Part shown: in pieces, positions 5,927-54,468 of the stretch
Layout of the letters: the number at the start of each line of letters is the position of its first letter
Position numbering within the stretch: the stretch's first letter is position 1
Origin: an uncultured Gammaproteobacteria bacterium
GTDB lineage: Bacteria > Patescibacteriota > Microgenomatia > Levybacterales > UBA12049
Length of the DNA stretch: 64,000 nt
Direction: 5' to 3'
Assembly: GCA_964515545.1 (NCBI GenBank)
Contig: CAZERI010000003.1
Coordinates: forward strand, 88,246 to 152,245
Translations under genes and position numbers: made by a program
Notes under the pieces: generated by a model
Databases searched by the model: none
What the model was told of the DNA's origin: nothing
The model's input: only the letters and a program-made list of their open reading frames with translations

Positions 5927-5979
5927 ATTTTAATATAATAAAGCAGATATTCATGTCTATAAGATGTAGTGTCTGTGGA

Positions 5980-6009
5980 TTGACAAAATACTAGGATATT
6001 CATTATACT
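5980..6009 (+). promoter_or_regulatory. sigma70-like promoter upstream of greA (TTGACA-N18-TATACT)
   Basis: TTGACA at 5980-5985, 18-nt spacer, TATACT at 6004-6009; AGGAGA Shine-Dalgarno about 11 nt before the greA ATG. Confidence 0.35.
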
Positions 6010-6073
6010 TTTCCTGGTTTACATAACACATGCAAGTCTCTCCCAATATAATTAGGAGAGATTTTTTACAACT

Positions 6074-6541
6074 ATGGACACTAAAAAAATATATCTTACA
6101 AAAGATGGGCTAGCAGATCTGAAAAAGGAGTATGAGGAACTTACTAAGGTTAAACGGCCAGAAGTAGTTACCCGCGTTTCAGACGCACGAAATCAGGGAG
6201 ATCTTTCAGAAAATGCTGAGTATGTAGCTGCTCGTGAAGAGCTGTCGTTTATTGATGGGAGAATTGATGAGCTTGAAGAGTTACTCAAGCAGGTCTCACT
6301 TATTCAGGAAGATAAACCTAATTCTTCGGCGATTGATTTAGGGTCAGAAGTTACTTTGAAAATTAGCGGTAAGGAAGAAGTCTATCGGGTCGTAGGAGAA
6401 TGGGAGGCAGATCCTGCTGCAAAGAAAATTTCACATGAATCGCCTCTTGGTAAAGCACTTCTCGGTAAAAAAAGCGGGGAGAGTATTGAAGTAGAAGCTC
6501 CTGCTGGTAAGATCCACTACACCATTGTCTCAGTTAAGTAA
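6074..6541 (+). CDS. greA: transcription elongation factor GreA
   Basis: MDTKKIYLTKDGLADLKKEYEEL... GDLSENAEYVAAREEL... coiled-coil plus FKBP-like C-terminal domain, 155 aa. Confidence 0.9.
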   Translation: MDTKKIYLTKDGLADLKKEYEELTKVKRPEVVTRVSDARNQGDLSENAEYVAAREELSFIDGRIDELEELLKQVSLIQEDKPNSSAIDLGSEVTLKISGKEEVYRVVGEWEADPAAKKISHESPLGKALLGKKSGESIEVEAPAGKIHYTIVSVK

Positions 6542-6562
6542 TAAGCGTATACTCATTTAAAG

Positions 6563-7519: not shown

Positions 7520-7601
7520 AAGTTGACAAAACGAAGACCATCGTTGATAATATCTTTCTACACTTTATGCAGACACGAATTGTGACAAACAATGCTAAGA
7601 A

Positions 7602-7628
7602 GAACCGCTCGTAAGAGGGGTTCTTTTC
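7602..7628 (+). terminator. rho-independent terminator-like hairpin (imperfect 9-bp stem, GTAA loop, U-run)
   Basis: GAACCGCTC-GTAA-GAGGGGTTC followed by TTTTC; 8 of 9 pairs. Confidence 0.45.
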
Positions 7629-7641
7629 GTGTTTGAATAGA

Positions 7642-7663
7642 CCCCTCCGAAGAGGGGTTTTTT
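7642..7663 (+). terminator. rho-independent terminator (GC stem CCCCTC/GAGGGG, CGAA loop, T6)
   Basis: CCCCTC-CGAA-GAGGGG followed by TTTTTT; second of two tandem hairpins downstream of murB. Confidence 0.6.
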
Positions 7664-19353: not shown

Positions 19354-19382
19354 TTGACAAAAAATAGCACTCTTGTTATGAT
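19354..19382 (+). promoter_or_regulatory. sigma70 consensus promoter of the hrcA-grpE-dnaK operon (TTGACA-N17-TATGAT)
   Basis: TTGACA 19354-19359, exact 17-nt spacer, TATGAT 19377-19382. Confidence 0.6.
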
Positions 19383-19390
19383 AGTGCTAA
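19365..19390 (+). promoter_or_regulatory. CIRCE operator (HrcA binding site) overlapping the -10 element
   Basis: TAGCACTC-N9-TAGTGCTAA matches the CIRCE consensus TTAGCACTC-N9-GAGTGCTAA; sits directly upstream of hrcA. Confidence 0.6.
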
Positions 19391-25850: not shown

Positions 25851-28800
25851 ATGAAAAAAAATGTATTATCACTATTTTCGATCCTTACTCTTTTACTTAT
25901 CTTTTTTTCTCCTAATGTTCATGCACAGGTAACTCCTACTCCAACCCCTGCTTCCATTCCTGTCACTCTTGGCACTCAGCCATTACCAGCAGAAGGAGCG
26001 TGGATTATAGATCCAGAAGTAACAACAGTGGGTAAAAATGCTTCACGTTCAGGCATGCTTTTAGACTGGACGCTAAGAGACTATAAGTGGTCCTCAGATA
26101 CGAGTTATACGAATAATCCGCTTACTCCATTTTGGCTGATCATCCAAAGAATCGTATATTCTCTTTTCCTTTTTGTCCTTCTCGTTACGGCATTTATTCT
26201 TATCGTAACACGAGGAAAGAGTCTATCAGCGAAAAGATTTCTGCCCAGATTTCTTTTGGTAGTTCTTCTAGTTACTTTCTCTTTTTCATTAGTGCAGTTT
26301 CTTTATCAGATTGTAGATATTTTCCAGGGATTTTTTCTTAAGAATCCTAAAGGGGAGATTATCTCTTCTCATGATCTTCTCTTCATTGGTTTTGATTACC
26401 GTACTTTCCAAGGATTAAGAGTCTTTGGAGAATCATACAATGAGTCTGCCTTTATTTCACTCCTTCTCGTAAAGTTAACTTCATTCACTTACTATGTCAT
26501 GGCTATACTTCTGATTTTCAGAAAAATTATTTTATGGTTCTTAATAATTATTTCTCCTGTGTTTCCGTTATTATTGCTGTTCTACCCGTTGAGGAATACG
26601 GCAAAAATTTGGATTGGGGAATTTTTCCGTTGGCTCTTGTATGCACCTCTCTTTGCTATTTTACTTTCTGGACTAGTGAGATTATGGAGTACAGGATTGC
26701 CTCTTTTCTTTAGCTCTGTCGGAGTAGGGAAAGAGAGTAGTTCAATTTATCCAACTGCCGTCAATATCCTTTTAGGTGGGCCAGGCCAGCATATAGGAAT
26801 CAATAATAGCGTTAATCTTCCGGATACGTTTGCTCTTTATTTGGTAGCTCTTCTTATGCTGTGGGCAGTTATTATTCTTCCTTTTATCCTTTTGCAGATA
26901 TTCTTGGATTATATGATGGCCTTTAATAACCGTGATAATCCATTTATGAAGCAAATTCTCACGATGCTTAATAACAGACCTATTATCCCTTCAGCCCCTT
27001 CCACACCGCCTCCTCCTGTGGGAGCTGGTTTAGCACGCAATTTACCTTTTGCAAAACGCTTCTCAATTCCTAAGACCACAGGGATTGCCCGTGAGGTTCC
27101 ACGAGGAGCTGCTCAGACTATAACTCGTCCTACATTCACCCAAAGAAATACTCAGACAGAGATATCACGTCTGACCAATCTCTCAATTCCTACTATGAGG
27201 GATATTGCGCGTCTTGAAACGACGAAACTTTCTCATGATGTGAGGACTCAGCAAGAGATAGAAAGAACGCGCCAAAACCTGATCAATATTGCAAATCCGG
27301 CTTCTGTAACATCTGTGACTGAGCGGGAGAGAGTAAAAATGATCCATGATCGCTTAGTAACTGAAGGACAAAAAGGCAGCCAGGTTGCAGCATCTATTTT
27401 AAATGCAGCAAATACGTATAATACATATTCTTCCTCAATTTCTTCATCCTCGCAGTCTTCAGTTGCACAAGTGACCCAGCAAATGATTGAAAATCTATCT
27501 CATCCGATGACAATTATCTCAAAAAGGGACCAACAGAAAATTATTGAGATCCGGCAGGAATTAATTAAAGCATCTGATGCGGGGAATCAATTTGCTAAAA
27601 ATATTCTTACCTCTGTCAATAACTATACAACCAATCAAGTTCAGAATCTTCAGAAGACTCTCAATCAGCTTGCTAGTCCAGAGAAGATAACTGACAATAA
27701 AGACAGAGAAGTATTTACTACACTTCGTGAAAAGATAACCTCTGCAAGCAAATCAGGTAATCCACTGGCTACTCTTCTTAGCAAGACTCTTGAGAGTAGT
27801 ACCTCAACAGAACAAGTCAAAAAGATTCAGCAGGAGTTGATCGAGGCTAAGGCGCAAGGTAATCCATTGGCTACAGAGCTTCTTAAGACAGTATCAGTTA
27901 CTGATAAGACCTCTGAAAAAGATATGGAGAAGTTATATGAGACTCTGAAGGAAGAAAGTAAATCAGGAAACCCACTAGCCACCCTTCTTCTTAAAACGAT
28001 CTCTTCACAGGAAAAATCACAAGCAGCTTCATTCTCGGCAACAGCAAAATTAAAGTCAGGTGTTCTCCCTCAAGTAAATCGGATTCAGCAGGTATCGTTG
28101 GATGACTATGAGGCTGTCAAGAAGATGTGGACAGATAATTATAAGAATTTGGAAGTGCCAAATAGTCAGCAGACACGAAAACAATGGATTGATCAGGATA
28201 TCTCAAGTATCCAAGAGGCTATTAGCCTCCTTTCCTCCCCCAATCCTCAGGATGTAGAGAAAGGCATGCAACAAGTCTCTGATATCTTGCCTTTCCTTTT
28301 AATTGGAGGCTTTTCTCAGACGGAGATCATTGCCTACTTGAAGGCTAAGATGGAGGCAGGAAAGAGTGTAGTAGAGAATGTTTCAGAAAAAGAAGAGGAG
28401 GAAGAAACACTACTTAATGCAGAACGTGCAGCAAAAGAGGCAACCGGTCACTTGGCAGCATCTATTGAGATAAAGAATGATGAAGTAAAAGGGAGTGCCC
28501 CATCGGTACCAATCCCAGCTGAAAAAGTCATCATTCAGTCTCAAGCCAATGCTCCAATACAGATCCAGACTAGTACATACTCCCCAGTACAGGAAGTGCA
28601 ACTAGATTCTCCTTCTTCAGTTGTCTCCCAGCTTCGTCTTCCTCTGCCAACACTCCGTGATATAGCAAGCTTTGAGACAAAGAAAGAAGGAAGAACTGTC
28701 CAGGATCTCAAAAAACTTTTTGTTCAATTATCACATCCAGAGGATATAGCTTCTCCATCTGAACAAAGAAATCTTTTAAAGATTAAGCAAACACTTCAGG

Positions 28801-29879
28801 ATCAAGCTCAGAAAGGTGATAGCACTGCACAAATGATAATTAATGCGTTGGGATTATCACAGACAATGGATACAGTTGGTGAAAAGCATGATTTCCTAAT
28901 GACTCTTAAAACAATTCTTGATCCATCCCTTGCATCAGAGGATGATCAATCATATTACAGACAAGTACGTGATGAGTTGGTTAAAGCACGTCAAGAATCA
29001 GATGTTATCGCAACTCAAGTAATGAAGCTTGTAGATAAGATATCCCAGACGGAGACTGAGTCTATTATAAAACTTCTGCAGAATCTCCATGACCCTGAAC
29101 ATCTCATAGCTAATGAGAAAGATAAAGAGACATTCATTTCTTTGAGAAATAATCTCAAGTCTCAGAAAGCAACTAGTCAGGTGGCATCAAGTATTCTTAC
29201 TGCTACTCAGAATACAATTACGTCTGTCAGTGCCAACAAAATTCGTGTGCAGCTGCTCGAAAAGGCTTCACAGAAAGATCCATTGGCAACAAGTATTATG
29301 AAAGAATATATCACGCTTCCTAAGGAAACGATTCAAGAGATAAACAATCTCTATCAGACGATTCAGAAATCATCGGATCCGTTCTCTAAGCTACTACTTA
29401 AACTTCTTACTCAGCAGACAAAAAGAGCAAGAGGAGTTAGAGTAGAGCGATTCCCACGAGAAAATCGTATCCAAAAAGTGAGTCTTGATGATTATGAGCA
29501 GGTGAAACAGATGCTCTATGAAATGTATTTGCATGGGACAGTTCCGCCGGGAAGGAATGGTCAAGAACAGGCACGTGTGGATTGGATTACAGAGGAAAAG
29601 CAGCAAGTAGAGGAAGTTATTAACCTCCTTTCATCAGATGATATGAATAATGTCCAGCTAGGAATGACTAAGGTAAATGATATCCTTCCCTTTCTTCTCT
29701 TGGGCGGATTTTCCCAAAATGAAGTTCTTCAGTATCTGAGAGCCAAACAAGAAGCTGCGGGTATGGCTCTACAGACGCTAGAAGGTACAGAGGAAAAGGT
29801 TTTTGTTGAAAAGAAGGAGAATTCAATAAATCAGCAAAAAATGGCTGTTGAGAGTAATGAATCAGTAGAAAAGGAGTAA
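25851..29879 (+). CDS. giant polytopic membrane protein: signal peptide + ~6-TM VirB6/TrbL-like domain + ~950-aa repetitive helical C-terminal region
   Basis: Cleavable signal (…NVHA|QVTPTPTP), 6 hydrophobic helices between aa ~100-360, and a Pro-rich linker. Beyond that, a twofold super-repeat combines an RDIA motif, 4-5 GNPLATxLLKT-type helical repeats and a ~100-aa VSLDDYE...ILPFLLxGGFSQ module. Confidence 0.5.
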   Translation: MKKNVLSLFSILTLLLIFFSPNVHAQVTPTPTPASIPVTLGTQPLPAEGAWIIDPEVTTVGKNASRSGMLLDWTLRDYKWSSDTSYTNNPLTPFWLIIQRIVYSLFLFVLLVTAFILIVTRGKSLSAKRFLPRFLLVVLLVTFSFSLVQFLYQIVDIFQGFFLKNPKGEIISSHDLLFIGFDYRTFQGLRVFGESYNESAFISLLLVKLTSFTYYVMAILLIFRKIILWFLIIISPVFPLLLLFYPLRNTAKIWIGEFFRWLLYAPLFAILLSGLVRLWSTGLPLFFSSVGVGKESSSIYPTAVNILLGGPGQHIGINNSVNLPDTFALYLVALLMLWAVIILPFILLQIFLDYMMAFNNRDNPFMKQILTMLNNRPIIPSAPSTPPPPVGAGLARNLPFAKRFSIPKTTGIAREVPRGAAQTITRPTFTQRNTQTEISRLTNLSIPTMRDIARLETTKLSHDVRTQQEIERTRQNLINIANPASVTSVTERERVKMIHDRLVTEGQKGSQVAASILNAANTYNTYSSSISSSSQSSVAQVTQQMIENLSHPMTIISKRDQQKIIEIRQELIKASDAGNQFAKNILTSVNNYTTNQVQNLQKTLNQLASPEKITDNKDREVFTTLREKITSASKSGNPLATLLSKTLESSTSTEQVKKIQQELIEAKAQGNPLATELLKTVSVTDKTSEKDMEKLYETLKEESKSGNPLATLLLKTISSQEKSQAASFSATAKLKSGVLPQVNRIQQVSLDDYEAVKKMWTDNYKNLEVPNSQQTRKQWIDQDISSIQEAISLLSSPNPQDVEKGMQQVSDILPFLLIGGFSQTEIIAYLKAKMEAGKSVVENVSEKEEEEETLLNAERAAKEATGHLAASIEIKNDEVKGSAPSVPIPAEKVIIQSQANAPIQIQTSTYSPVQEVQLDSPSSVVSQLRLPLPTLRDIASFETKKEGRTVQDLKKLFVQLSHPEDIASPSEQRNLLKIKQTLQDQAQKGDSTAQMIINALGLSQTMDTVGEKHDFLMTLKTILDPSLASEDDQSYYRQVRDELVKARQESDVIATQVMKLVDKISQTETESIIKLLQNLHDPEHLIANEKDKETFISLRNNLKSQKATSQVASSILTATQNTITSVSANKIRVQLLEKASQKDPLATSIMKEYITLPKETIQEINNLYQTIQKSSDPFSKLLLKLLTQQTKRARGVRVERFPRENRIQKVSLDDYEQVKQMLYEMYLHGTVPPGRNGQEQARVDWITEEKQQVEEVINLLSSDDMNNVQLGMTKVNDILPFLLLGGFSQNEVLQYLRAKQEAAGMALQTLEGTEEKVFVEKKENSINQQKMAVESNESVEKE
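28066..28365 (+). repeat. internal protein-module repeat copy A (RIQQVSLDDYEAVKKM ... ILPFLLIGGFSQTEIIAYLKAKMEAG)
   Basis: ~100-aa module duplicated within the 1342-aa ORF; the nucleotide copies are diverged (ancient duplication). Confidence 0.55.
29448..29765 (+). repeat. internal protein-module repeat copy B (RIQKVSLDDYEQVKQM ... ILPFLLLGGFSQNEVLQYLRAKQEAA)
   Basis: Second copy of the module; same order of conserved residues (VSLDDYE, W, LLSS, GM..V.DILPFLL.GGFSQ.E...YL.AK). Confidence 0.55.
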
Positions 29880-29922
29880 GAGGAGACTTGCTCTTTCAAA
29901 GAAAATACTATTAAATAGAACT

Positions 29923-32673
29923 ATGCTTGGTAACCTGTTCAACCAACATAAAGATGTTATTTCCGATAAACCTGTAGTGGAACCGCCACATCCACAAGAT
30001 ATGGCCTCTTCACAAGGAGATGGTGTTTCGGCGACATCCCGCCTTGATCCTTCACTTCGTCAAAATCTTTCGGCGCTCTCCCATCTAGACGCCCGAATGA
30101 CTCAAGTTCTACATCATGCTCAAGATGAAGCAAAAAAAGTGCGTCATGAAAAAATTGAACCTGAGCAGCTGCTGTTAGGACTTTTATATGATGAGCAAAT
30201 ATTCAAGCTTCTTGAAGGCTTTTCTGTTGATGCGCCCAAATTAGCTAAAGAAATACAAAGTAAAGAAGCTATAGGTACCTTTGTAGGTTTGGCTACCCTA
30301 AGCGATGCAAGTACAAGTCTTTTTGAGGTCGCCTATCGTGATGTTCAGGCTCGTAACGTAACATTTATTGCTCCTGAGGATTTATTAGTCGCATTGTGTA
30401 ATAGCTCAAACGATGTGGCAAAAGTTCTAGATGAAAAGGGTGTTACCAGTAAACAGCTTGGAGAAAGACTCTCTAAATCTCCCACTTATACAACCGGTAA
30501 GAAATCGGTACTTGAAACGTATGCTATCGATCTAACCGAGGAAGCCAAAGCCGGAAAGCTGGACCCCATCGCTGGACGTGAGCGGGAAGAAGATCGTCTG
30601 ATCCATGTTCTGCTTCGCCGTACGAAGAATAATCCAATTATTATTGGAGAGGCAGGAGTTGGGAAGACAGCTATTGTGGAAGGGTTAGCTGAAGCAATTG
30701 TATCAGGAAAGACTCCATCTGGACTGAAAGATAAAAGAATTTACCAATTAGATCTGGCGTCTATGGTAGCGGGTGCTTCTCATAGAGGGGAATTTGAAGA
30801 ACGTCTTAAGGGTGTAATCAATGAAACGATTGCCTCTGAGGGGAAAGCTATCCTCTTTATTGACGAGATTCATACTCTTATTGGTGCTGGTGATACAGAT
30901 GGAGCACTCGATGCATCAAATATTATTAAACCCCATTTGGCTCGAGGGCATATGCAGATTATAGGTACTACGACCACAGCTGAGTATAGAAAGTATTTCG
31001 AAAAAGATAAGGCCTTTGAAAGAAGATTTCAGCCAATACTTTGCGATGAGCCTTCAGAAGAAGCAGCCGTTGAGATGCTAAAAGTTCTTCGTCCAAAATA
31101 TGAAAAATTTCATGGTGTAACTATCCCTGATGATACATTGGTTGCTTCGGTAAAGCTCTCTAAGAAATATATAGGAGAGAGGTATTTGCCAGATAAAGCA
31201 GTGGATCTTATTGATGAAGCTGCAGCAGATGTAAAGTTAGGAAGAATTGGACCTGCAAAGGCTGAGTCGGCTAAAGATAAAAAAGATGATGAGAAGCTAG
31301 CCAATAATGGAATGTCCGAAGCAACATCTCCAACACCTCAGGCAGCTGGCAATCAAGTAGTGAAATCAGACATAGAAAAGGTAGTCAGTAACTGGACTGG
31401 TATACCAATCACCAAGCTTACAGAAGATGAAAGTCAAAAGCTGCTTAAGCTTGAGGATAGGATCCACGATCGGCTTATAGATCAGGAAGAAGCAGTAGCA
31501 GCAGTAGCAGAGGCAGTAAGACGAGGGCGTATTGGCCTTGCTCCTGCGAATAGGCCGATTGCATCATTTATTTTCTTGGGTCCTACAGGAGTCGGAAAGA
31601 CGGAATTAGCCAAGACTCTTGCCGAGATTCTCTTTGGGCGGGATGATGCTCTTGTGAGGTTGGATATGAGTGAATATATGGAAAAACATGAAGTAGCTAA
31701 GCTCATAGGAGCACCTCCCGGATATGTGGGTTATGAAGAGGGAGGACAACTAACAGAAGCAGTACGTGCTAAGCCATACTCAATAGTTCTTCTTGATGAA
31801 GTTGAGAAAGCCCATCCGGATGTCTTTAATATACTGCTCCAGCTTCTGGAAGATGGACGTTTGACGGATAATAAAGGGAATACAATTTCTTTTAAAAATA
31901 CTATCGTGATTGCGACCTCAAATATTGGGAGTGCTCTTATCCAGCAACAACTAAGTGATAAGGCTCAAACATCTGACAGTCCCTCAGCAACACCTCAGTC
32001 ACAAGAACAATTTGACAAACAGTTTGCTGAATTATCAGGACTTGTAACAAATGAACTCCGTAAATTCTTTAGACCAGAACTCCTGAATCGTTTTGATGAT
32101 GTAGTTATATTTAAGCCTCTCAGGCGTCAAGATATGACTAGAATTGCTAAATTGGGTATTGCTAAGACTGCCAAACTTTTAGAAGAGCAAGGATATCATA
32201 TGCAGGCAACAGATAAAGCGTTAGCAGAATTAGCTCAGGAAGGGTATGATCCTGTATATGGCGCAAGACCTTTGAGAAGATTAATCCAATCATCGATTGA
32301 GAATCAGGTGGCTATGCTTCTTATAGGGAAAGAGTTTGTGGTAGGAGATACTATTGTTATTGATTATGATCAAGAGAAAAGTACATTTAGCTTCTCTAAA
32401 GGAAGTGGAGCCCCCAAGCTTGATACTAAGTCAGATGCGCAGGAAGCAGAAGAGACTGCCTCATCCCCTGACTCGACTCCTCCTACGACTCCTTCCCCTG
32501 TTGGTAGTGGTGAAGCACAAGCTATGCCTAATGATCATGCAGAAGGAGAGTTACCTAGTACTCCGCAGTTCGCAACTCCTGATTATAATCCGCCCTTTCT
32601 CAATACCGCTGATCACGTGAGTGATACTATGTCTGCTCCTACATCTTCTGATGCAGTTGCTAGCGCTTCTTAG
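29923..32673 (+). CDS. Hsp100/Clp-family two-ring AAA+ ATPase, ClpC-like (double Clp_N repeat, short linker), with S/T/P-rich C-terminal tail
   Basis: Two Clp_N repeats, D1 Walker [11 protein letters not shown]2 Walker [10 protein letters not shown], sensor/Arg motifs (GARPLRR), short inter-domain linker; ~90-aa low-complexity tail. Confidence 0.8.
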
Positions 32674-32687
32674 AAAAGACTTCTAAT

Positions 32688-32716
32688 TTGAGTTTTACCT
32701 CGTAACTTCCTATACT
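32688..32716 (+). promoter_or_regulatory. candidate sigma70-like promoter (TTGAGT-N17-TATACT)
   Basis: TTGAGT 32688-32693, 17-nt spacer, TATACT 32711-32716, 22 nt before the small membrane protein gene. Confidence 0.3.
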
Positions 32717-32738
32717 AGAATAGATTAATTGTCACTAT

Positions 32739-33068
32739 ATGTCTGCCTATTTTTTCTTGCCTTTTTATTTTCTTTCGTTTTGGTTTGGTGAAGCTCCTGT
32801 TAGCATACTTCGCCATTTTCTTGAGATTAATAAGGCTTTCTTTCGCTTCTTCTCCATCTCTCTTCTCTTAAGAACTTTTTTTCAGCCTATTAAAAATGAA
32901 TATCGTAAAGGACTGGTTGGTTTTTCTATTGGGATGGGAATGGTAGTAAAGACGATGGTTATTCTCGCTTCTCTTATTCTCTTTATTCCAATTTTGCTCC
33001 TAGAGATATTACTTTTAGGAGGATTTTTAATCTTTCCTTTAGTAACGCTAGCGTTATTGATTTGGTGA
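32739..33068 (+). CDS. small integral membrane protein (3 TM), translationally coupled to the downstream ATPase
   Basis: 109 aa, hydrophobic; stop 4 nt before the start of the next gene. Confidence 0.4.
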   Translation: MSAYFFLPFYFLSFWFGEAPVSILRHFLEINKAFFRFFSISLLLRTFFQPIKNEYRKGLVGFSIGMGMVVKTMVILASLILFIPILLLEILLLGGFLIFPLVTLALLIW

Positions 33069-33072
33069 TACT

Positions 33073-35475
33073 ATGGACCATCATTTTATAGCATTTTACC
33101 GTCTCTATCATAATATCCTGATTCGATTCCTTAGGATTTCTATCCCAGTTGTATTAACACTGGCAGTTATTATGGGTAATTTCTCTCATTCTTCGCCGAC
33201 TTTCTTTCTTGCTTTGTTCAATATTTTTGTAATGATTGAGATATTTTATCGGTATAAGATCAGTTTGGTCCAGTCAAAAAAGATAGTGCCGGAGGTAGAA
33301 GAGAAAGATGCACTCCATGTGATGAGTCTCCAGGCTCTCTCATCGATGCATGCATCTTCTCTGGCATATGATGTAGTTAAAGACTTACTGAGGTATCCGC
33401 AAGTCCACTTTTTTCTGGAAAGGGCAGCAATCTCTCCTCAAGAATTAGTTAAGAATGATTTAGGGAATGCACTTCTTCCTCAAGAAGCATATTCTTTAGT
33501 AAGGTCAATTAATGGAAAAAGAATCATTACAGTTGATATTCTGGCCTCATATTTATTACTGAGTGAAGAAAAAACGCAACTACTTTTTAACAAGAAATTG
33601 AAACCTAAAGATATATTGGCAATATTACAATGGACTCGGCTTATTTATCCACAAGAAGAAGAACATCAACGTTTCCATATTGAAGGAAACGGCGGGGGCC
33701 TTGGAGAAAGTTTAGTAATTGGTTGGACTCCTGAGACTAAAAACTACACACGAAATTTTACTAATAGTCTAACGGAGCATGATGTTTCTATTGTGGGTAG
33801 AGAAAAAGAATATGAATTAATTAAGGAGGTTCTTTCAAAGCAGGAAAATAATAATCTGGTGTTAGTAGGGGAAGCGGGAGTGGGGAAAGAACAGCTAATC
33901 CAGAAACTGGCACTCGACAGCTATAGCGGGAGGATACATAGAGGGCTTGCTTCCAAGACAATTTTGGAGCTGTTAGTCGGAACATTACTTGCGGGCGCAA
34001 CAACTCAAGGTGATTTGCAGGCCCGTATTGAAGCAATTATTGCAGAGGTGTCTCATGCTCAGAATATCATTCTTTATATCCCTGATTTCCAAAATATGAT
34101 TGGGGGCGGAACTTTTTCACTAGACTTATCGGGGGCATTAGCCCCTTACCTTAAAAATGGTACGATCCCGATTATTGCCAGTATGACTGAAGGAGCGTAT
34201 AAAACCTATCTAGAGAGAAGCTCCCTTAATCAGTTGTTCTCTCCGATAAAAATAGCTGAGGTTAATGAGGATCTGGCTCAGCTTATGGTAATGGAAAAAA
34301 CACAAGAGATAGAGAAAAAGTCTTCTGTTATTGTTACATACTCTGCATTAGTCGAATCAGTCAGATATGCCGACCGCTATAGCCAAAGTATGGTGTTGCC
34401 AGGGAGTGCGATTGCTCTCCTATCGGACGCGGTAAGCGGAGTACTATTGACGGATGCTCCTATCTATCCTCAGTCAAAAAGGCGGTTATTAGAAAGAGAT
34501 GCTGTGGTTAAGCTTGTTGAACAAAAGACTAAAATTGCTCTATCTGAACCGACTCAAGAAGAAAAAAGCCTCCTTCTTCATTTAGAAGATGTTCTGCATA
34601 ATCATATTATTGGCCAAGATGCAGCTGTACATGTTCTAAGTGAGGCAATGAGAAGGTTACGAGTTGGGATAGAAGATAGAAAACGGCCTATCTCATTTCT
34701 CTTTTTAGGACCCACGGGAGTTGGTAAAACAGAAACAGCAAAGACACTGGCTAATACTTATTTTGGAGGAGAAGCCACTATGATCAGGTTTGATATGAGT
34801 GAATACGCTGATGAAGAAGGACAACGAAGATTACTTGGGTCTCTTCCAGGACAAGGCGAGGAGAGAGGAGAACTTACTGAGCAGATACGAGACCATCCAT
34901 ACTCACTGATCCTTCTTGATGAATTCGAAAAGGCACATACCTCGATTCGTGACCTATTTTTACAGATACTAGAGGATGGAAGATTAACAGATAACAAAGG
35001 GAAAACGATTTCATTTATTAATACCATTATTATTGCTACCTCTAATGCTGGATCTGAATTTATCCATGATGCAATCACGAAAGGAAGAATAGTTGATAAG
35101 CAATTTGAAAATGATTTATCAGAATATCTCCAGTCTCATAATATTTTTAAACCTGAACTTCTCAACAGATTTGATGCTGTAGTGACATTTAAACCTCTTA
35201 CTGAGACAGAGGTTCATACTATTGCTGGGCATCTACTCAGTGAACTCAAGAAAAAGCTTCTAGAGAAAGATATTACTCTTGAAATTGATGATGCTGTTTT
35301 AACTAAAGTGGGCAAGGAAGCATACAACAAAGAAATGGGAGCTCGTCCCATCAGGAGATATATCCAAGATACTATAGAAGATCTACTGTCACAAAAACTG
35401 CTTACATCATCGGTCACAAGAGGTAATCACGTGAGGCTCGCTGTAGATGCAAATAATTCTTTTGTTATTGTATAG
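33073..35475 (+). CDS. membrane-anchored Hsp100/Clp-like AAA+ ATPase with degenerate D1 Walker A
   Basis: Two N-terminal TM helices; Clp_N-like repeats; D1 GEAGVGKEQ (Walker-A Ser/Thr replaced by Glu); D2 GPTGVGKTE intact; sensor-2 GARPIRR. Confidence 0.7.
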   Translation: MDHHFIAFYRLYHNILIRFLRISIPVVLTLAVIMGNFSHSSPTFFLALFNIFVMIEIFYRYKISLVQSKKIVPEVEEKDALHVMSLQALSSMHASSLAYDVVKDLLRYPQVHFFLERAAISPQELVKNDLGNALLPQEAYSLVRSINGKRIITVDILASYLLLSEEKTQLLFNKKLKPKDILAILQWTRLIYPQEEEHQRFHIEGNGGGLGESLVIGWTPETKNYTRNFTNSLTEHDVSIVGREKEYELIKEVLSKQENNNLVLVGEAGVGKEQLIQKLALDSYSGRIHRGLASKTILELLVGTLLAGATTQGDLQARIEAIIAEVSHAQNIILYIPDFQNMIGGGTFSLDLSGALAPYLKNGTIPIIASMTEGAYKTYLERSSLNQLFSPIKIAEVNEDLAQLMVMEKTQEIEKKSSVIVTYSALVESVRYADRYSQSMVLPGSAIALLSDAVSGVLLTDAPIYPQSKRRLLERDAVVKLVEQKTKIALSEPTQEEKSLLLHLEDVLHNHIIGQDAAVHVLSEAMRRLRVGIEDRKRPISFLFLGPTGVGKTETAKTLANTYFGGEATMIRFDMSEYADEEGQRRLLGSLPGQGEERGELTEQIRDHPYSLILLDEFEKAHTSIRDLFLQILEDGRLTDNKGKTISFINTIIIATSNAGSEFIHDAITKGRIVDKQFENDLSEYLQSHNIFKPELLNRFDAVVTFKPLTETEVHTIAGHLLSELKKKLLEKDITLEIDDAVLTKVGKEAYNKEMGARPIRRYIQDTIEDLLSQKLLTSSVTRGNHVRLAVDANNSFVIV

Positions 35476-35493
35476 GTACCTTTTCTTGACAAC

Positions 35494-36564
35494 TTGCTGG
35501 TATCCCTCTACTCTAATAATGCTGCCATGAAGAAAAGACACTCAGTACGTACTAGGGCTCGTTCCAAAAGTAAGACCCATCGCCGTAAGCTTCATCATCG
35601 GGTACTTTCTTTCTTTAAAGGGGATGGCGGAATCTATGTGATTTTCGTTCTAGCAACTGTTATGGCAGGTGCATTTGCCTTAAGCGGAGGGCTCCTTCCT
35701 AGCCTTAATCAGAATCCTACTGCTTCATCTGAGGTGACTATCGATCCAGACTCTGCTAAACAGAGCTCAGAAAGTGCTTTACAGCTTGTTGATATAAAAA
35801 TAAAGCCGAGTGACACTCCTGTTCCGACTCCAACTCCGACCAAAGTAGTTACTCCTACTCCTCAGGCTTGTCTTAACAAAATAGCTCTCAATCTTGTCTT
35901 GGACGTATCTGCCTCAATGAATAATGATGATAAGATCCGTCAGCTCAATACTGCAATGAAGAACTTGGTCGATCAATTAAAAGATGATACCGTAGTCGGT
36001 GCAGTAACGTTTGCGGGGCTTACTTCTTTTCCTAATACGGGAGGGTCAATAACTCAACTCCCTTTTACCAAATATAAAGATAATAAAAAATTAGTTAGTG
36101 ATAAGCTTACCAAACTTACTGCTTATAATGGGGGAGAGACTGACGGAACATATATGCGTAATGCATTCCAGAGGTCACTTAATAATCTTAACGTTGATCA
36201 GGTAACCTACGCAAACCAGGGTTATAATTTCGTCACTATTGTATTTACAGACGGAGTACCTGAAACAAAAATATGGGATGATGATTGTGTCGTACAGGCT
36301 AATGGATCTAATCCAGTTTGTTTTGCGCGTAAACAAGATCCACGTATATCTCCTGATCTAACCTCAACTATGAAAGGAAAATCTAGTAAGGTATATTCAG
36401 TGGGGATTTACTCCGGACCGCGTGAGACGCAGACAGTAATCTACAATGAGGCAAAGAAACTCTTAAGTGCTATTGCTTCTAAATCAACATATGCAAAAAA
36501 TAGTAATAGTCCTTCAGCAATTGACAGCATGTTTAAAGACGTGCTGAATTCTGTCTGCCAATAA
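35494..36564 (+). CDS. membrane-anchored von Willebrand factor A (vWA) domain protein
   Basis: K/R-rich cytoplasmic N-terminus, one TM, TPVPTPTPT linker, complete MIDAS (DVSASM, ETDGT, FTDGVPE); the start could alternatively be MKKRHS at 35527. Confidence 0.6.
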   Translation: MLVSLYSNNAAMKKRHSVRTRARSKSKTHRRKLHHRVLSFFKGDGGIYVIFVLATVMAGAFALSGGLLPSLNQNPTASSEVTIDPDSAKQSSESALQLVDIKIKPSDTPVPTPTPTKVVTPTPQACLNKIALNLVLDVSASMNNDDKIRQLNTAMKNLVDQLKDDTVVGAVTFAGLTSFPNTGGSITQLPFTKYKDNKKLVSDKLTKLTAYNGGETDGTYMRNAFQRSLNNLNVDQVTYANQGYNFVTIVFTDGVPETKIWDDDCVVQANGSNPVCFARKQDPRISPDLTSTMKGKSSKVYSVGIYSGPRETQTVIYNEAKKLLSAIASKSTYAKNSNSPSAIDSMFKDVLNSVCQ

Positions 36565-36586
36565 TCCTCGATATGATTCATTTGGG

Positions 36587-36615
36587 TTGATACAGCCTGC
36601 CTGATCTGGTATACT
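36587..36615 (+). promoter_or_regulatory. sigma70-like promoter of nusA (TTGATA-N17-TATACT); predicted leaderless or near-leaderless transcript
   Basis: TTGATA 36587-36592, 17-nt spacer, TATACT 36610-36615; the nusA ATG lies 9 nt after the -10 and there is no SD. Confidence 0.45.
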
Positions 36616-36624
36616 TACAAAACT

Positions 36625-37827
36625 ATGCCAGCAGTACAAAGATCAGAATTTGCCCTTGCACTCAATCAGGTCGCTACAGAACGCGGAGTTGATGTAGAAG
36701 TTGTCTTAGATACAGTCCGTAATGCAATTCTTGCAGCTTATCGTAAAGATCATCCTGGTGTAGAGGTGGAGGAATACACTGCAGAGTTAAATCCTAATAC
36801 TGGTGAAGCAAGTATTCTCCATAATGGCGAAGATGTAACCCCTCCAGGGTTCGGCCGAATCGCAGCTCAAACTGCTAAGCAAGTTATCCTCCAAAAAATC
36901 CGAGAAAAAGAAAAAGAAGCTATCATCTCAGACTATAAAGATAAATTAGGTCAGATTGTGAATGGTACGGTTCTTCGTTTTGCCGGTCCAAATATTATTG
37001 TTGATATCGGTAAAACAGAGGCTATTATGCCTCCTCAAGAACAAATCCGTGATGAAAAATATTATCAGAATCAACGCTTAGTCGTTTTTATTAAAGATAT
37101 TAGAGAAGGAGTTAAGGGTGAAGAAGTCATAGTATCACGAGCTGATAATGGCCTTCTAGAAGGACTTTTCAAGAGAGAAGTACCTGAGGTATCACAGGGA
37201 AGTGTCTTGTTGAGAGCAATTGTCCGTGAGCCTGGCAATCGTTCTAAAGTTTCAGTAGCTTCAACCCAAAGCGGTATTGATCCTGTAGGAAGCTGTGTGG
37301 GACAGAAAGGTGTCCGTGTCCAAGCCATTATTCAAGAAGTAGGCGGAGTAGAAAAAATAGACATTATTCAGTGGCAGGAAGATACTACTAGTTATGTTGC
37401 AGCAGCATTATCTCCTGCGAAAAATGTCCAAGTCCGTCTTAATGAAGAGGAAAAAATAGCGACAGTCATAGTTCCTCAGGAAGAATTATCATTAGCAATT
37501 GGGAAAGACGGTCAAAATGTGCGTCTAGCTTCCAAGTTAACGGGATATCGGATTGAGATTGAAGGAGCAGAGCTTCCTCACGAGGAGGAGCTGCCAGAGA
37601 CTAAAGAGGAAACAGCTTCTCAAGATACAGAGAGTGCTGATGTGGTAAAAGATACTGTTGAAGCAGAAGAGAATCCTGAAATTGCACAAGATGTAGAGCA
37701 AGAGCAGGTACTCGAAGAAAATGAAGCAGCAGAGACACCTGTTGATGCGCCTGATGCATCTGCAGAGGAGTCTATCCCTCCCACAACTGATACTACTGAT
37801 CAATCACAAGAAGAAACGACTGAGTAA
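36625..37827 (+). CDS. nusA: transcription termination/antitermination factor NusA
   Basis: N-terminal domain, S1 domain (GTVLRF...IIVDIG) and two KH domains (GSCVGQKGVRVQ...; AIGKDGQNVRLA); acidic C-terminal tail. Confidence 0.9.
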   Translation: MPAVQRSEFALALNQVATERGVDVEVVLDTVRNAILAAYRKDHPGVEVEEYTAELNPNTGEASILHNGEDVTPPGFGRIAAQTAKQVILQKIREKEKEAIISDYKDKLGQIVNGTVLRFAGPNIIVDIGKTEAIMPPQEQIRDEKYYQNQRLVVFIKDIREGVKGEEVIVSRADNGLLEGLFKREVPEVSQGSVLLRAIVREPGNRSKVSVASTQSGIDPVGSCVGQKGVRVQAIIQEVGGVEKIDIIQWQEDTTSYVAAALSPAKNVQVRLNEEEKIATVIVPQEELSLAIGKDGQNVRLASKLTGYRIEIEGAELPHEEELPETKEETASQDTESADVVKDTVEAEENPEIAQDVEQEQVLEENEAAETPVDAPDASAEESIPPTTDTTDQSQEETTE

Positions 37828-43168: not shown

Positions 43169-44296
43169 ATGTTGGATACTGCTCTCCCGACAATTACTCC
43201 ATCAAACACACCCCCTGCAGATCTTTCTGATAAAGGTGAGTCTGTAGATCAGATTAGAAAACTGGGTGAACGGGTAGAAAAGACAGAACTTCCTGATCTT
43301 CTCAAACAAAACCTCCTAGAGCGAATCTCACGATTAGCTCTTATTAGAGCAAGTGCCGGATTTATGAGTGCTAATTACATCTTGGAATATGAAAATACCT
43401 CAACGTATGTAAATTGGATAGTCGGTCTTCCATGGCAGAGACAGAGCGCAGATACACTAGACCTAGTTAAAGCCAAACAAATTATGGATAAAAATCATTA
43501 CGGGTTAGTTACTATTAAGGAAAGAATATTAGACTACCTAGCAACTCTTATTTTGAATATGAAAGAAGGTAATCACAAAGCAGTTCAAAGAGCGCCAATC
43601 CTCTGCTTAGTAGGGTTGGCAGGAACTGGAAAAACAACGTTAGCTAAGTCTATTGCAGAAGCATTAGGGAAGCAGTTTGAACGTATTCCCTTTGGAGGAA
43701 TGGCAGATTCAAGGGCGCTGCGCGGACAGTCCAAAGCATTTCCTGATAGTGAGCCTGGATATGTTATCAAGAAACTCTTCCATGCTCAGACAAGTAATCC
43801 AGTGATGCTCTTGGATGAATTAGATCGTGTTACTGAATCTGCACGAGCTGATATCATGGGTGTTTTAGTCGAGTTATTAGACCCTGAGCAGAACTTTGCT
43901 TTTACTGATCATTACATAGATTATGCCTATAACATGTCAAATGTGTTATTTGTCGCAACAGCAAATAATACAACTAATATCTCAACAGCAGTCCTTGATC
44001 GTCTAGAGATCATTCAGATGCCTTCCTATACAGACGAGGAGAAAATTGTGATCGCGAAAGTTTATCTATTTAACAAAATTAGAAGTGAAGCGGGCCTTTC
44101 AGAACAACAGCTGGTGATTGATGAAGCAGTATGGCCTGGAATCATTAGACCATTGGGATTTGACTCTGGGATTCGTTCGCTGGAACGTACCATTGAAGGA
44201 ATGTGTCGGCGTGTTGCTCGGCGGATTGTAGAAGGAAAGGTGCAGACTGTTAGGATAACAGATATGAATCTAAAAGAGTTTTTACCGACATGGTAA
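43169..44296 (+). CDS. Lon-like AAA+ ATPase module lacking the S16 peptidase domain
   Basis: Aligns by eye with Lon from the coiled-coil/linker (VGLPWQRQSADTLDLVKAKQIMDKNHYGLVTIKERILDYLA) through Walker A (GLAGTGKTT), Walker B (MLLDELDRV), LEVLDPEQN-like (VELLDPEQNFAFTDHY) and sensor-2 (SGIRSLERTIEGMCRR). It stops exactly at the AAA+/protease boundary. Confidence 0.75.
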   Translation: MLDTALPTITPSNTPPADLSDKGESVDQIRKLGERVEKTELPDLLKQNLLERISRLALIRASAGFMSANYILEYENTSTYVNWIVGLPWQRQSADTLDLVKAKQIMDKNHYGLVTIKERILDYLATLILNMKEGNHKAVQRAPILCLVGLAGTGKTTLAKSIAEALGKQFERIPFGGMADSRALRGQSKAFPDSEPGYVIKKLFHAQTSNPVMLLDELDRVTESARADIMGVLVELLDPEQNFAFTDHYIDYAYNMSNVLFVATANNTTNISTAVLDRLEIIQMPSYTDEEKIVIAKVYLFNKIRSEAGLSEQQLVIDEAVWPGIIRPLGFDSGIRSLERTIEGMCRRVARRIVEGKVQTVRITDMNLKEFLPTW

Positions 44297-53715: not shown

Positions 53716-54468
53716 TTATTGATCATTGGGCTGTAGTGTCGTATCAGGTTTAACGATACGAGCTCGTATAATGAGTCTCTTCCAGGTAGTTCCAGGAGGA
53801 GTACAAGTTACTAGTATAAGATAATTGTCGTCATAATTCTGGGCAAAAAATGACGTATCAAGAGGACTAGTAATCGTAATATTATAAATCTTATAAGTAT
53901 AAGTAAGGTTATCTACTTTAATATCTATCTTATCTCCTACTTCAAGGGTATGTGCGTAAGCAAATACGGTGTCATAATCTCCCTGTTTAAAGAGTTGAGG
54001 AAGTGTTGAGTGTCCAAAGATAACTGCAGTTCCCCTGCTTGGAGGAACAGCAGTACCCCCATACTGAACGAGATGATGAGAAAGATCAGTATCAATTGTT
54101 GATACATCCAAATCCATTTGGTGGATTTTAGGAATACTCATCGTGTAATGTGTCACTGCAACATCAGTATGAGCTTGTTGAATACTAGGATACCAGTTCT
54201 TGGCATCTGTGTAATCAACCCCTGTGAGTGTATCGGCAGTAGATTGGATCAAGTCACGAAAAGAATTACTACTTAGCATGGTTGCTTCAGGAATTGGAGC
54301 TGCTAATTTTTGTGAAGCAAAAACAGGCTGAAGATAGAGCTGGAAGGAAAGAAGAGGAAATGAAAAGTACCCGACCATTATGAGCCCAAAAATGCAAAGC
54401 AACATCCCAAAGAATCGGGCATAACGCCGAAATAATGCTGGATTTTTCTTAGTATAAAGTTTAGTCAT
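53716..54468 (-). CDS. sortase-family transpeptidase (membrane-anchored)
   Basis: N-terminal TM; catalytic His (VIFGHS), LILVTCTPPGT (TLxTC Cys motif), conserved Arg (RLIIRAR). Confidence 0.7.
   Translation of the reverse strand: MTKLYTKKNPALFRRYARFFGMLLCIFGLIMVGYFSFPLLSFQLYLQPVFASQKLAAPIPEATMLSSNSFRDLIQSTADTLTGVDYTDAKNWYPSIQQAHTDVAVTHYTMSIPKIHQMDLDVSTIDTDLSHHLVQYGGTAVPPSRGTAVIFGHSTLPQLFKQGDYDTVFAYAHTLEVGDKIDIKVDNLTYTYKIYNITITSPLDTSFFAQNYDDNYLILVTCTPPGTTWKRLIIRARIVKPDTTLQPNDQ

Follow-up and report, generated by a model that had tools for sequence, protein, structure and literature searches.

A conserved two-gene module of uncultured Patescibacteria that probably encodes a new membrane machine derived from Clp/Hsp100 proteins

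Introduction

Hsp100/Clp proteins are the textbook soluble threading motors. FtsH is a bacterial AAA+ hexamer with two N-terminal transmembrane helices per subunit, which place its substrate-entry face at the membrane. Pex1/Pex6 and the D2 ring of NSF represent the double-ring type II AAA+ arrangement, in which only one ring serves as the motor and its companion, a scaffold, does not hydrolyse ATP. Pex1/Pex6 is brought to the membrane by a small membrane protein, Pex15 or Pex26. These proteins belong to another AAA+ clade; their active ring has aromatic pore loops and threads substrates, and they are recruited to membranes rather than integrated into them.

In ClpB, D2 is reported to be the main threading motor (PMC6593972), and the trans-arginines of D1 are needed for oligomerisation and activity (PMC4239642). 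Torsin is a Clp/Hsp100-related AAA+ protein that has no aromatic pore loops, carries an N-terminal hydrophobic membrane segment and has a membrane protein of its own as working partner (PMC5425593).

Here we describe a gene pair at positions 32739-35475 of the window (the whole 64,000-nucleotide stretch of DNA that was analysed; all genes and features below lie on its + strand). The pair is a conserved two-gene module of uncultured Patescibacteria (CPR), and it probably encodes a new membrane machine rather than an ordinary protein disaggregase. We found no description of the family in the literature on membrane-anchored or transmembrane Hsp100 proteins or on Clp and other AAA+ proteins of Levybacteria, Patescibacteria and CPR bacteria.

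Results

The small membrane partner and its coupling to the ATPase gene

The two open reading frames lie where the original prediction placed them. The first (32739..33068) encodes an integral membrane protein of 109 aa and stops with TGA at 33066-33068; the second (33073..35475) encodes an 800-aa Clp/Hsp100 paralogue and starts with ATG at 33073. The spacer is 4 nt, and a Shine-Dalgarno-like GGTGA sits within the end of the small ORF. The proposed translational coupling to a small membrane partner holds well beyond this locus: a homologue of the partner is found immediately 5' of the ATPase in 81 of 84 related loci, and the three exceptions begin at a contig edge. The distance from partner stop to ATPase start is mostly -4 to +4 nt, so that the genes overlap or nearly abut.

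The partner has an amphipathic N-terminal half (residues 1-57) and a strongly hydrophobic C-terminal half (residues about 58-109), a distribution that does not establish the three transmembrane helices once proposed for it. Its GRAVY value is 1.3. Alignment of 28 orthologues gives 16 invariant columns, a mean column identity of 59-62% and an invariant loop, F-x-P-x-K-N-E-Y-R-x-G-L, at residues 48-59. The protein matched no family in Pfam, NCBIfam or PADLOC at useful E-values, and an exhaustive profile search with an alignment built from database proteins recovered only 63 representatives at 50% identity among 1.84 billion proteins, all of them 43-152 aa long. In-frame fusions of partner and ATPase occur in at least three lineages and designs (L063; L077; and L070, L076 and L082 with P0108). 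In these fusions the partner takes the place of the first membrane helix of the ATPase, and the second is retained as a single span. For the topology of the partner, the positive-inside rule points one way and the fusions another. Judged by its linkage and composition, the partner is evidently an obligate, very hydrophobic protein.

Membrane anchor and N-domain of the ATPase

The ATPase has the domain content of a class I (double-ring) Clp/Hsp100 protein: a D1 module with AAA_lid_9 (Pfam, 2.5e-5) and an AAA_2-type D2 (1.7e-46) with ClpB_D2-small (8e-22). Its best sequence match in the PDB is ClpC (E 2e-112, aligned over residues 219-797). The AF2 model has a mean pLDDT of 85 and was matched by Foldseek to ClpC, ClpC1 and ClpB protomers at E 1e-52 to 1e-42.

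The prediction that this paralogue carries a membrane anchor agrees with the family alignment, in which two N-terminal hydrophobic helices are kept in 39 of 41 members, the other two being N-terminally truncated. TM1 (residues 15-37, ILIRFLRISIPVVLTLAVIMGNF; 33115..33183) is bordered at its N-terminal end by R18 and R21. TM2 (residues 43-63, TFFLALFNIFVMIEIFYRYKI; 33199..33261) is of marginal hydrophobicity, with a near-invariant E56 and an invariant F58, and is the helix kept in the fusions. AF2 models both segments as helices at pLDDT 90-96 (above 90 for TM1). A simple Hessa-scale sum gives family medians of +0.6 for TM1 and +4.2 for TM2, whereas no 19-mer of the soluble part does better than +6.7. 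The comparison supports reading the two helices as membrane spans, though the marginal hydrophobicity of TM2 counts against it. The loop between them is only ~5 residues long, and the protein has no extracytoplasmic domain of any size.

Behind the anchor lies an eight-helix N-domain (residues 77-191; 33301..33645). The original prediction called it Clp_N-like, and it does appear to have that fold in diverged form. Profile-profile comparison with canonical Clp N-domains (hhalign) matched the second repeat at a probability of 93.7% (E 1.9e-7), and Foldseek returned almost only Clp N-domains (top matches ClpC1, Hsp104 and ClpA), although weakly (probability 0.9-0.99, E 0.17-0.5, TM 0.41-0.49). 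Pfam Clp_N was not detected at E<=1 in the ATPase of the window or in any of 17 family members. The linker between N-domain and D1 carries a signature, GWTPETKNYT (residues 217-226; 33721..33750), in which G217, W218, T219 and E221 are invariant. With this pattern as the sole query, 92 confirmed relatives were recovered from the genome collection.

A degenerate but constrained D1 ring

D1 (residues 241-470; 33793..34482) is a degenerate AAA+ module, as alignments to ClpC and the neighbouring Clp and column counts over 41 aligned family members indicate. Its Walker A reads GEAGVGKE (residues 266-273; 33868-33891) and aligns column for column with GEPGVGKT of Bacillus subtilis ClpC and GEAGVGKT of the neighbouring Clp, so the K-E is a genuine substitution and not a register error. 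The position of the Thr is Glu in 34 of the 41 members and Thr or Ser in only 3. In the Walker B segment (IILYIPDF, 34066-34089), the Asp is replaced by Pro in 40 of 41. Both arginine fingers of D1 are gone, ERRF having become NQLF (LNQLFS, 34225-34242). The pore loop (AGATTQGDLQ, 33991-34020) reads TTQ at the place of K-Y-R, and it lacks Tyr and Trp in all 41 members. With GKE, IPDF and NQLF at its catalytic positions, D1 lacks the features of a competent ATPase site, both across the family and in distant relatives, and the proposed combination of a pseudo-ATPase D1 with a motif-complete D2 is supported. The mean pairwise identity of 0.52 indicates that D1 is still under constraint, and, taken with the column identity of the partner (59-62%), that both genes of the module are under purifying selection.

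A motif-complete D2 without aromatic pore loops

D2 with its D2-small domain (residues 501-800; 34573..35472) is the most conserved domain of the protein, with a mean pairwise identity of 0.68. Walker A (GPTGVGKT, 34708-34731), Walker B (LILLDEFE, 34906-34929), sensor-1 (TSN, 35038-35046), the arginine finger (LNRFD, R699; 35161-35175) and sensor-2 (GARPIRR, 35338-35358) are invariant or nearly so across the family. Thus, the description of D2 as intact stands for its catalytic motifs, and the claim of intact arginine fingers stands for D2 only. What had been overlooked is the loss of the pore-loop Tyr, by which such machines pull on their protein substrates: in the D2 pore loop (LGSLPGQGEERGEL, 34834-34875), GYVG has become GQG, and no aromatic residue is present in 39 of 41 members. 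The loop itself, G-[E/Q]-G-x-E-R-G-E, is well conserved and could take hold of a special substrate. The pore loops of the family are conserved, acidic and non-aromatic. Judged from the alignment, rings that have lost these aromatic residues are poor candidates for canonical threading, yet the loss is no proof that the pore carries nothing.

Coupling elements of known Hsp100 systems are missing as well. The check for an M-domain by alignment found no counterpart of the ClpB or ClpC M-domain in the ATPase; the ~50 residues of the ClpC M-domain (about 424-473) are unmatched, and the D1-D2 linker is ~25 residues long. The ClpP-docking tripeptide h-G-[FL] is absent: VGF of ClpC aligns to KGR, and the family consensus is K-G-[T/R/K]. 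Scores against NCBIfam models fall well below their cut-offs for ClpB (TIGR03346, 433 bits in two separate stretches, cut-off 1232), for ClpA (TIGR02639, 408, cut-off 993) and for ClpV/TssH (TIGR03345, 373, cut-off 885); the neighbouring genes include chaperone genes, nusA and infB and no T6SS genes.

These features bear on whether the protein is a conventional Hsp100 unfoldase, disaggregase or dislocase that happens to be tethered to the membrane and threads membrane or aggregated proteins through its pore from the D1 face, much as membrane proteins are extracted by FtsH or Msp1. The D2 motor motifs are complete, the same ring is reported to be the main threading motor of ClpB (PMC6593972), the N-terminal anchor would set the substrate-entry face at the membrane, and the genes lie in a proteostasis neighbourhood with hrcA-grpE-dnaK-dnaJ and a canonical Clp. 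However, neither ring of the Levybacteria family has the pore-1 aromatics, and five distant relatives have a D2 loop that is shorter still; there is neither an M-domain for coupling to DnaK nor a ClpP loop, and the chaperone neighbourhood is not kept outside Levybacteria. We therefore consider such an unfoldase unlikely, and the earlier description as a disaggregase or translocase motor is not supported in its usual sense.

Distribution and distant relatives

The family is present in 92 species-representative genomes, almost all of them, where named, from Levybacteria. It comprises ~110 clusters at 90% identity with proteins of roughly 800 aa, and a score gap from 616 to 399 bits separates it from canonical Clp proteins.

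Public gene calls leave out the partner ORF and start the ATPase at Met34, which cuts off TM1. One might thus suspect that the gene is a copy of the neighbouring Clp gene in decay, or an annotation artefact, with a small ORF that is not a gene and a hydrophobic N-terminus produced by a misplaced start codon. Against this, the long N-terminus and the small ORF are kept at the protein level in the 92 species-representative genomes, down to ~35-40% identity and with no frameshifts, and D1 has a mean pairwise identity of 52% with invariant motifs of its own. The conservation data refute decay or artefact, and the chance that we attach to it is negligible.

Five more distant ATPase-partner pairs, one of them from Andersenbacteria, share the same traits at 27-35% identity. 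In all five, a partner homologue lies directly upstream, aromatic pore-loop residues are absent from both rings, and the D2 pore loop is further shortened. D2 is intact in these relatives, and the D1 motifs are disrupted in ways that vary among them. The Walker A Lys of D1, which is kept in Levybacteria, is lost in the Andersenbacteria-type relatives. The membrane-embedded E56 and E89 are not conserved outside Levybacteria. A coupling to protons through these residues was considered and rejected as a core feature, since neither is conserved in the distant lineages.

The same comparison weighs on the idea that the ATPase is the motor of a transmembrane conduit, in which six hairpins and six partners form a pore in line with the AAA+ channel, for carrying a non-standard cargo across or out of the membrane, such as charged peptides, lipid-linked molecules or molecules derived from a host. 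CPR bacteria depend on uptake from hosts, and the module is so far known only from them. Very roughly, 24-36 hydrophobic helices would come together in a hexamer with its partners. Conservation is higher in the partner than in the anchor of the ATPase itself, and the pore loops are conserved, acidic and non-aromatic. However, an inter-helix loop of ~5 residues leaves no extracytoplasmic domain of any size, and the two glutamates are not kept outside Levybacteria. We find a conduit quite improbable.

Gene neighbourhood and regulation

A canonical-looking Clp paralogue of 916 aa (29923..32673) ends 65 nt upstream of the small ORF. Of 59 testable loci, 32 have such a gene within ~6 kb upstream, directly next to the pair in 10 of them, so that the linkage is common without being a requirement. 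The ATPase and its canonical neighbour are 36% identical over D1-D2, and their interfaces could thus be compatible. The module could then serve as a membrane tether or regulator of the canonical Clp, through mixed hexamers or ring-on-ring stacking, with the paralogue itself doing little mechanical work. Yet the linkage is missing in 27 of the 59 Levybacteria loci and in all five distant lineages, and the small partner is always present. Furthermore, the invariant catalytic residues of D2 imply that the paralogue itself would hydrolyse ATP, and a paralogue lacking the D1 arginine fingers could not activate the D1 site of its neighbour. A tethering role is, in our judgement, distinctly unlikely.

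Downstream, separated by 18 nt, is a gene for a membrane-anchored vWA protein (35494..36564; Pfam VWA_2, one hydrophobic helix). Following the model of MoxR-vWA pairs, it was considered as a possible third subunit and rejected, as it is downstream in 12 loci only, all of them close relatives; it probably lies outside the module. A role in defence was likewise rejected: PADLOC matches to Dodola DolB and PDC-M37B cover generic D2 only (residues ~481-774), PADLOC found no match for the partner or the neighbouring genes, and the locus lies in conserved housekeeping synteny in most related genomes. The flanking genes are chaperone genes and nusA-infB in Levybacteria and rplJ-rplL in Andersenbacteria-type loci, and these surroundings do not point consistently to any client.

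A scan of 29700-36700 for sigma-70 promoters and terminators found no more sites than in shuffled sequence. One site, TTGAGT-17-TATACT, falls in the 65-nt gap 5' of the small ORF; the scan as a whole did no better than on shuffled sequence. A search for CIRCE, the HrcA operator, found one site, at hrcA (19364-19390), and none near the upstream clp gene or the pair, so control of the pair by HrcA is not supported. A search of the upstream gaps for inverted repeats gave none.

Discussion

We give about half of our confidence to a two-subunit membrane AAA+ machine that is driven by D2 only and does not thread substrates in the canonical way. The ATPase would have arisen from a ClpC/ClpA-like Hsp100. 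Its hairpin would cross the membrane N-in/C-in, and six copies would form a ring with the D1 face against the membrane; we infer the hexamer, the stoichiometry and the contact between partner and hairpin solely from gene linkage and the fusions. D1 may act as a non-hydrolysing scaffold. Nucleotide binding by D1 may persist in Levybacteria, because the Walker A Lys is kept, and may be lost in the Andersenbacteria-type relatives, because the Lys is lost. The 12 transmembrane helices of the ring, together with the partner subunits, could form a membrane collar that aids assembly and thus makes up for the lost trans-arginines of D1.

With D2 as the sole motor, ATP-driven movements might be passed through a rigid layer of D1 and N-domains to the collar and the partner. 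Movement of the collar and partner could then remodel or free a client embedded in the membrane or close to it, which we see as the most likely mode of action. Processive threading and unfolding, feeding of ClpP and coupling to DnaK are not expected, because the pore-1 aromatics, the M-domain and the ClpP loop are absent.

We also entertain a broader and doubtful proposal. The module could represent a new class of AAA+ machine, integrated into the membrane and so far confined to several CPR lineages, in which a D2-only ring without pore loops hands its ATP-driven motion to a collar of hairpins and six small subunits and so remodels the membrane or moves non-protein or otherwise unusual cargo. 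Such a class would have arrived independently at the logic of torsin and its cofactors, and it might be linked to the dependence of these bacteria on hosts.

The clade breaks three rules of Hsp100 proteins together: it is membrane-integrated, one of its rings is a pseudo-ATPase, and neither ring has aromatic pore loops. Even so, the module is kept under strong purifying selection in genomes of ~1 Mb, always with its small membrane subunit. If our reading is correct, it offers a bacterial system in which to ask what a Clp-type ring does without a grip on polypeptides, a question that applies equally to torsins. It could also show a way for assembly to proceed without the D1 arginines, their part being taken by a dead D1 ring and a membrane collar, and the few known components of CPR cell biology would gain an envelope machine that is conserved and specific to the lineage. 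On the same reading, there is a practical consequence for annotation as well. The error in gene calling would be systematic, the partner ORF often being uncalled and the ATPase truncated or mis-started, and the ATPase receives the label 'ATP-dependent Clp protease ATP-binding subunit' despite the absent ClpP-docking loop.

Among described proteins, ClpC and ClpA are the nearest in fold. They share the protomer fold, the domain order (N-domain, D1, D2, D2-small) and the best sequence and structure matches (E 2e-112; Foldseek E 1e-52); their D2 catalytic motifs are identical to those of the ATPase, and ClpA, too, has no full M-domain. In contrast to both, the ATPase has a membrane hairpin, an obligate small membrane subunit and a D1 with degenerate Walker A and B, arginine fingers and pore loop, and it lacks the GYVG Tyr of D2 and the h-G-[FL] loop. 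ClpB and Hsp104 resemble it in having no ClpP loop and in giving the highest NCBIfam score (433 bits, roughly a third of the 1232 required). Unlike them, the ATPase has neither the M-domain coiled coil, and hence no coupling to DnaK, nor the two pore tyrosines and the D1 trans-arginines.

Pex1/Pex6 and NSF offer a possible parallel in the pairing of one scaffold ring with one motor ring; the ATPase differs from them in being membrane-integrated. In FtsH, one AAA module with an aromatic pore loop is fused to an M41 peptidase, whereas the ATPase has two AAA+ modules and Peptidase_M41 was not found in it by Pfam.

The closest analogue in probable working mode is torsin with LAP1 or LULL1, in the eukaryotic ER and nuclear envelope. 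The module does not fit the definition of a torsin and cofactor; what the two have in common is the lack of aromatic pore loops and the association with membranes. Torsin has a single AAA+ module and no arginine finger of its own, the finger being supplied by a cofactor with a degenerate AAA+ fold. In the ATPase, by contrast, D2 keeps its own arginine finger (R699, invariant), and it is D1, within the same chain, that is the degenerate AAA+ module. The partner, hydrophobic and 109 aa long, is too small for an AAA+ fold, and the origin of the module would be independent, bacterial and, so far, confined to CPR bacteria. In its logic, the machine proposed here would be a bacterial counterpart of torsin and its membrane cofactors.

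The ATPase as a member of the Clp/Hsp100 superfamily

The ATPase, an 800-aa ORF at 33073-35475 on the + strand, belongs by fold to the Clp/Hsp100 superfamily. It matches AAA_2, ClpB_D2-small and AAA_lid_9 in Pfam, and the solved structures nearest to it are those of ClpC, ClpB and ClpA (E 2e-112 to 1e-84). An AlphaFold2 model made from 41 family sequences (mean pLDDT 85) matches the protomers of ClpC, ClpC1 and ClpB in Foldseek superposition (E 1e-52 to 1e-42). For every NCBIfam Clp equivalog the ATPase reaches about one third to less than half of the cut-off (ClpB 433 vs. 1232, ClpA 408 vs. 993, ClpV 373 vs. 885), and it does not have the functional features that define ClpB, ClpA/C, ClpV and FtsH. 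Among 5.8 billion proteins searched, relatives of about 800 aa fall into about 110 clusters (42-100% identity), and a gap in score from 616 to 399 bits separates this family from canonical Clp proteins.

The two AAA+ modules

Residue-level alignments were made of the ATPase with B. subtilis ClpC and with the canonical Clp encoded 65 nt upstream (36% identity to the latter). In the first module, D1, Walker A reads GEAGVGKE where the canonical proteins have GEPGVGKT, and the substitution noted in the original prediction is therefore not a misread register. Walker B is ILYIPD instead of ILFIDE, which replaces the Mg-binding Asp with Pro; the trans-arginine pair ERRF has become NQLF; and the pore loop AGxKYRGEFE has become AGATTQGDLQ. 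The second module, D2, has a complete set of catalytic motifs, including GARPIRR, and its catalytic residues are invariant in 41 representatives. However, the original prediction overlooked that the D2 pore loop (LGSLPGQ-GEERGE) is shorter than in canonical proteins and has lost its tyrosine, which alters the interpretation. The approximately 50 residues of the ClpC M-domain, whose presence had been left for an alignment to decide, have no counterpart, and the ClpP-docking VGF of ClpC aligns to KGR.

These peculiarities are traits of the family, not accidents. Counted in the columns of the 41 representatives, D1 Walker A is GK-E in 34, with Thr or Ser in only 3, and Pro has replaced the Walker B Asp in 40. 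The D1 pore loop contains Tyr or Trp in none of the 41, and the D2 pore loop is without an aromatic residue in 39. Mean pairwise identity is 52% in the D1 large subdomain, 68% in D2 and 33-35% in the hairpin and N-domain. With this degree of conservation and with invariant motifs specific to the family on the D1 side (GWTPET, LDLSGA and LPGSA), D1 is not decaying. A decaying duplicate of a Clp gene is excluded by the conservation data. A conventional membrane-tethered unfoldase, which would have the complete D2 in its favor and the two non-aromatic pore loops against it, is rated lower than the mechanism proposed below.

The membrane hairpin and the N-domain

The original prediction also placed two hydrophobic helices before the Clp_N-like part, and this holds: AlphaFold2 gives long helices at residues 15-37 (TM1) and 43-63 (TM2), separated by a five-residue loop (pLDDT 90-96). 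The extension is kept in 39 of 41 aligned members, all with a complete N-terminus; the other two are truncated there. Because Arg and Lys flank the cytoplasmic ends of the helices (R18, R21; K62, K69, K70) and the loop has none, the N-terminus is consistent with a hairpin of N-in/C-in topology. Simple summation over the Hessa hydrophobicity scale gave a median of +0.6 for TM1, a marginal +4.2 for TM2 and +6.7 for the best 19-mer of the soluble part.

We treat the eight helices at residues 77-191 as a diverged Clp_N domain. Pfam Clp_N matches this region in 0 of 17 members. Profile-profile comparison with canonical Clp N-domains gave 93.7% probability (E 1.9e-7, second repeat), and the PDB matches of the separately modelled N-terminus (pLDDT 92) are Clp N-domains with few exceptions, and are weak (probability 0.9-0.99, E 0.17-0.5, TM 0.41-0.49).

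An obligatory partner

The partner is a 109-aa ORF at 32739-33068 (+ strand). Its TGA (33066-33068) is followed by 4 nt and then the ATPase ATG, and GGTGA is present inside its final codons. Relatives were sought by family signature in one genome per species; 92 were confirmed and 80 loci retained. Those with a name are almost all Levybacteria, Levyibacteriota, Microgenomates or "Patescibacteria group", a few bear other phylum names, and the title "uncultured Gammaproteobacteria", which stands on many of them, looks like a generic MAG-set label. The co-occurrence that the original prediction proposed to check is borne out: a partner homologue lies directly upstream of the ATPase in 81 of 84 loci, and the remaining three start at a contig edge. 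Most stop-to-start distances lie between -4 and +4 nt.

Conservation of the partner, at a mean column identity of 59-62%, exceeds that of the anchor of the ATPase itself. One loop (T-x-F-x-P-x-K-N-E-Y-R-x-G-L) is invariant, as are K71, E89 and P100. The partner has no family in Pfam or NCBIfam; its database matches form about 1,280 clusters, every one about 108-110 aa and labelled hypothetical, and exhaustive profile searching over 1.84 billion representatives turned up just 63 relatives, each 43-152 aa long. In loci L063 and L077, and in a subgroup made up of L070, L076, L082 and database protein P0108, partner and ATPase are joined by an in-frame fusion. The fusions differ in design, and TM1 is missing in each. 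Fusions of this kind are classical evidence for two proteins acting as one unit, and by the comparative data the partner is real and obligatory. Separately, the fused subgroup has deleted the first two N-domain helices, so the full N-domain looks dispensable once the partner is covalently attached. The D1 Walker A of P0108 is GEPGSGRS.

Residues 58-109 of the partner form a strongly hydrophobic stretch of about 51 residues. Immediately ahead of it, the KNEYR loop carries a net positive charge and would be expected on the cytoplasmic side. In the fusions, however, exactly one span separates the partner C-terminus from the cytoplasmic N-domain, and this requires that the partner C-terminus be outside. 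The KNEYR loop must then lie outside as well, unless one partner segment is re-entrant. A transmembrane-conduit motor is also rated lower.

In loci L001-L004, identical in sequence to window 32739-35475, public gene calls miss the 109-aa ORF and place the ATPase start at Met34, so that TM1 is lost; the family is thus systematically mis-annotated. In databases the ATPase is entered as "ATP-dependent Clp protease ATP-binding subunit", its partner as "hypothetical". In L085 (3412-3800), the ATPase ORF (P0113) is called too far upstream, over a partner-profile match in another frame.

Genomic context and distant relatives

The window (G+C about 40%) is an ordinary stretch of CPR chromosome with the order hrcA, grpE, dnaK, dnaJ, a TrbL-like giant membrane protein, canonical Clp, the small ORF, the ATPase, a vWA protein, nusA and infB. 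The vWA gene is present in only 12 loci, all close relatives. A tether for the neighboring canonical Clp is rated lower as well: the two genes are close here, and a canonical Clp lies at most 6 kb upstream of the ATPase in only 32 of 59 testable Levybacteria loci.

The 916-aa upstream Clp (29923-32673, +), although labelled canonical, is itself unusual. Its D1 pore loop is ASHRGEFE (Tyr to His), its D1-D2 linker is a low-complexity stretch of about 45 aa without an M-domain, an h-G-[FL] ClpP loop is not apparent, the C-terminus is a Ser/Pro/Thr-rich tail of about 90 aa, and it scores below the NCBIfam ClpB cut-off (894 vs. 1232). Directly upstream, a 1342-aa protein (25851-29879, +) has weak TrbL/VirB6 and DUF3144 matches, with a homologue upstream in about 24-30 related Levybacteria loci. 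The hrcA-grpE-dnaK-dnaJ cluster is 10-13 kb upstream of the pair. A CIRCE-like HrcA operator at 19364-19390 (+), ATAGCACTC-N9-TAGTGCTAA, has two mismatches (0.03 expected by chance) and is the only one in the window. It overlaps the listed hrcA TTG start at 19354, so the true start is probably downstream. Elsewhere, a stand-alone Lon-like ATPase may be encoded at 43169-44296 (+), where a 375-aa product combines AAA and Lon_lid domains and has no Lon protease domain; a 752-aa protein (8188-10446, +) fuses a class I lysyl-tRNA synthetase domain to a C-terminal B3_4 domain; and a 785-aa protein with a Baseplate_J-like region (54461-56818, -) is flanked by housekeeping genes.

Five more distant ATPases (27-35% identity), one from an NCBI Andersenbacteria genome, all have two N-terminal hydrophobic helices and a 119-135-aa partner homologue immediately upstream (partner profile E 2e-11 to 2e-3). 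Their D1 motifs are degenerate too, and not all in one manner: Walker A reads GKR, GAGTY, GVGRI or GGKE, and Walker B IENI or LDGI. D2 motifs are intact, and the D2 pore loops are shorter still and without aromatic residues. Because the flanking genes vary (rplJ-rplL, UDG, MFS), the conserved unit is the partner-ATPase pair alone. Its age exceeds that of Levybacteria. In the Andersenbacteria-type loci L086, L089 and L090 (about 5160-7650, minus strand), a conserved, convergent 716-724-aa protein with no Pfam match comes right after the ATPase gene.

A possible mechanism

The sequence comparisons show the domain anatomy of the ATPase, a dead D1 with a motif-complete D2, and the loss of pore aromatics, M-domain and ClpP loop, together with an obligate, sometimes fused, hydrophobic partner. 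The literature searched holds no description of this family, and the module is genuinely interesting for the biology of AAA+ proteins and of CPR bacteria. We postulate that the ATPase forms a hexamer that turns its D1 face to the membrane. D1 could serve as a scaffold and D2 as the sole motor. Oligomerization of ClpB requires the D1 trans-arginines (PMC4239642); in the ATPase, a membrane collar of hairpins and partners might aid assembly in their place. Subunit movements driven by D2 would be passed to the collar and partner, and would in this way remodel or release a membrane-embedded or membrane-proximal client.

Torsins are membrane-associated, depend on membrane cofactors, lack aromatic pore loops and are thought not to thread their substrates (PMC5425593). 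Since the ATPase also lacks pore aromatics, we favor a non-threading mechanism, and its likeness to torsins is one of analogy only.
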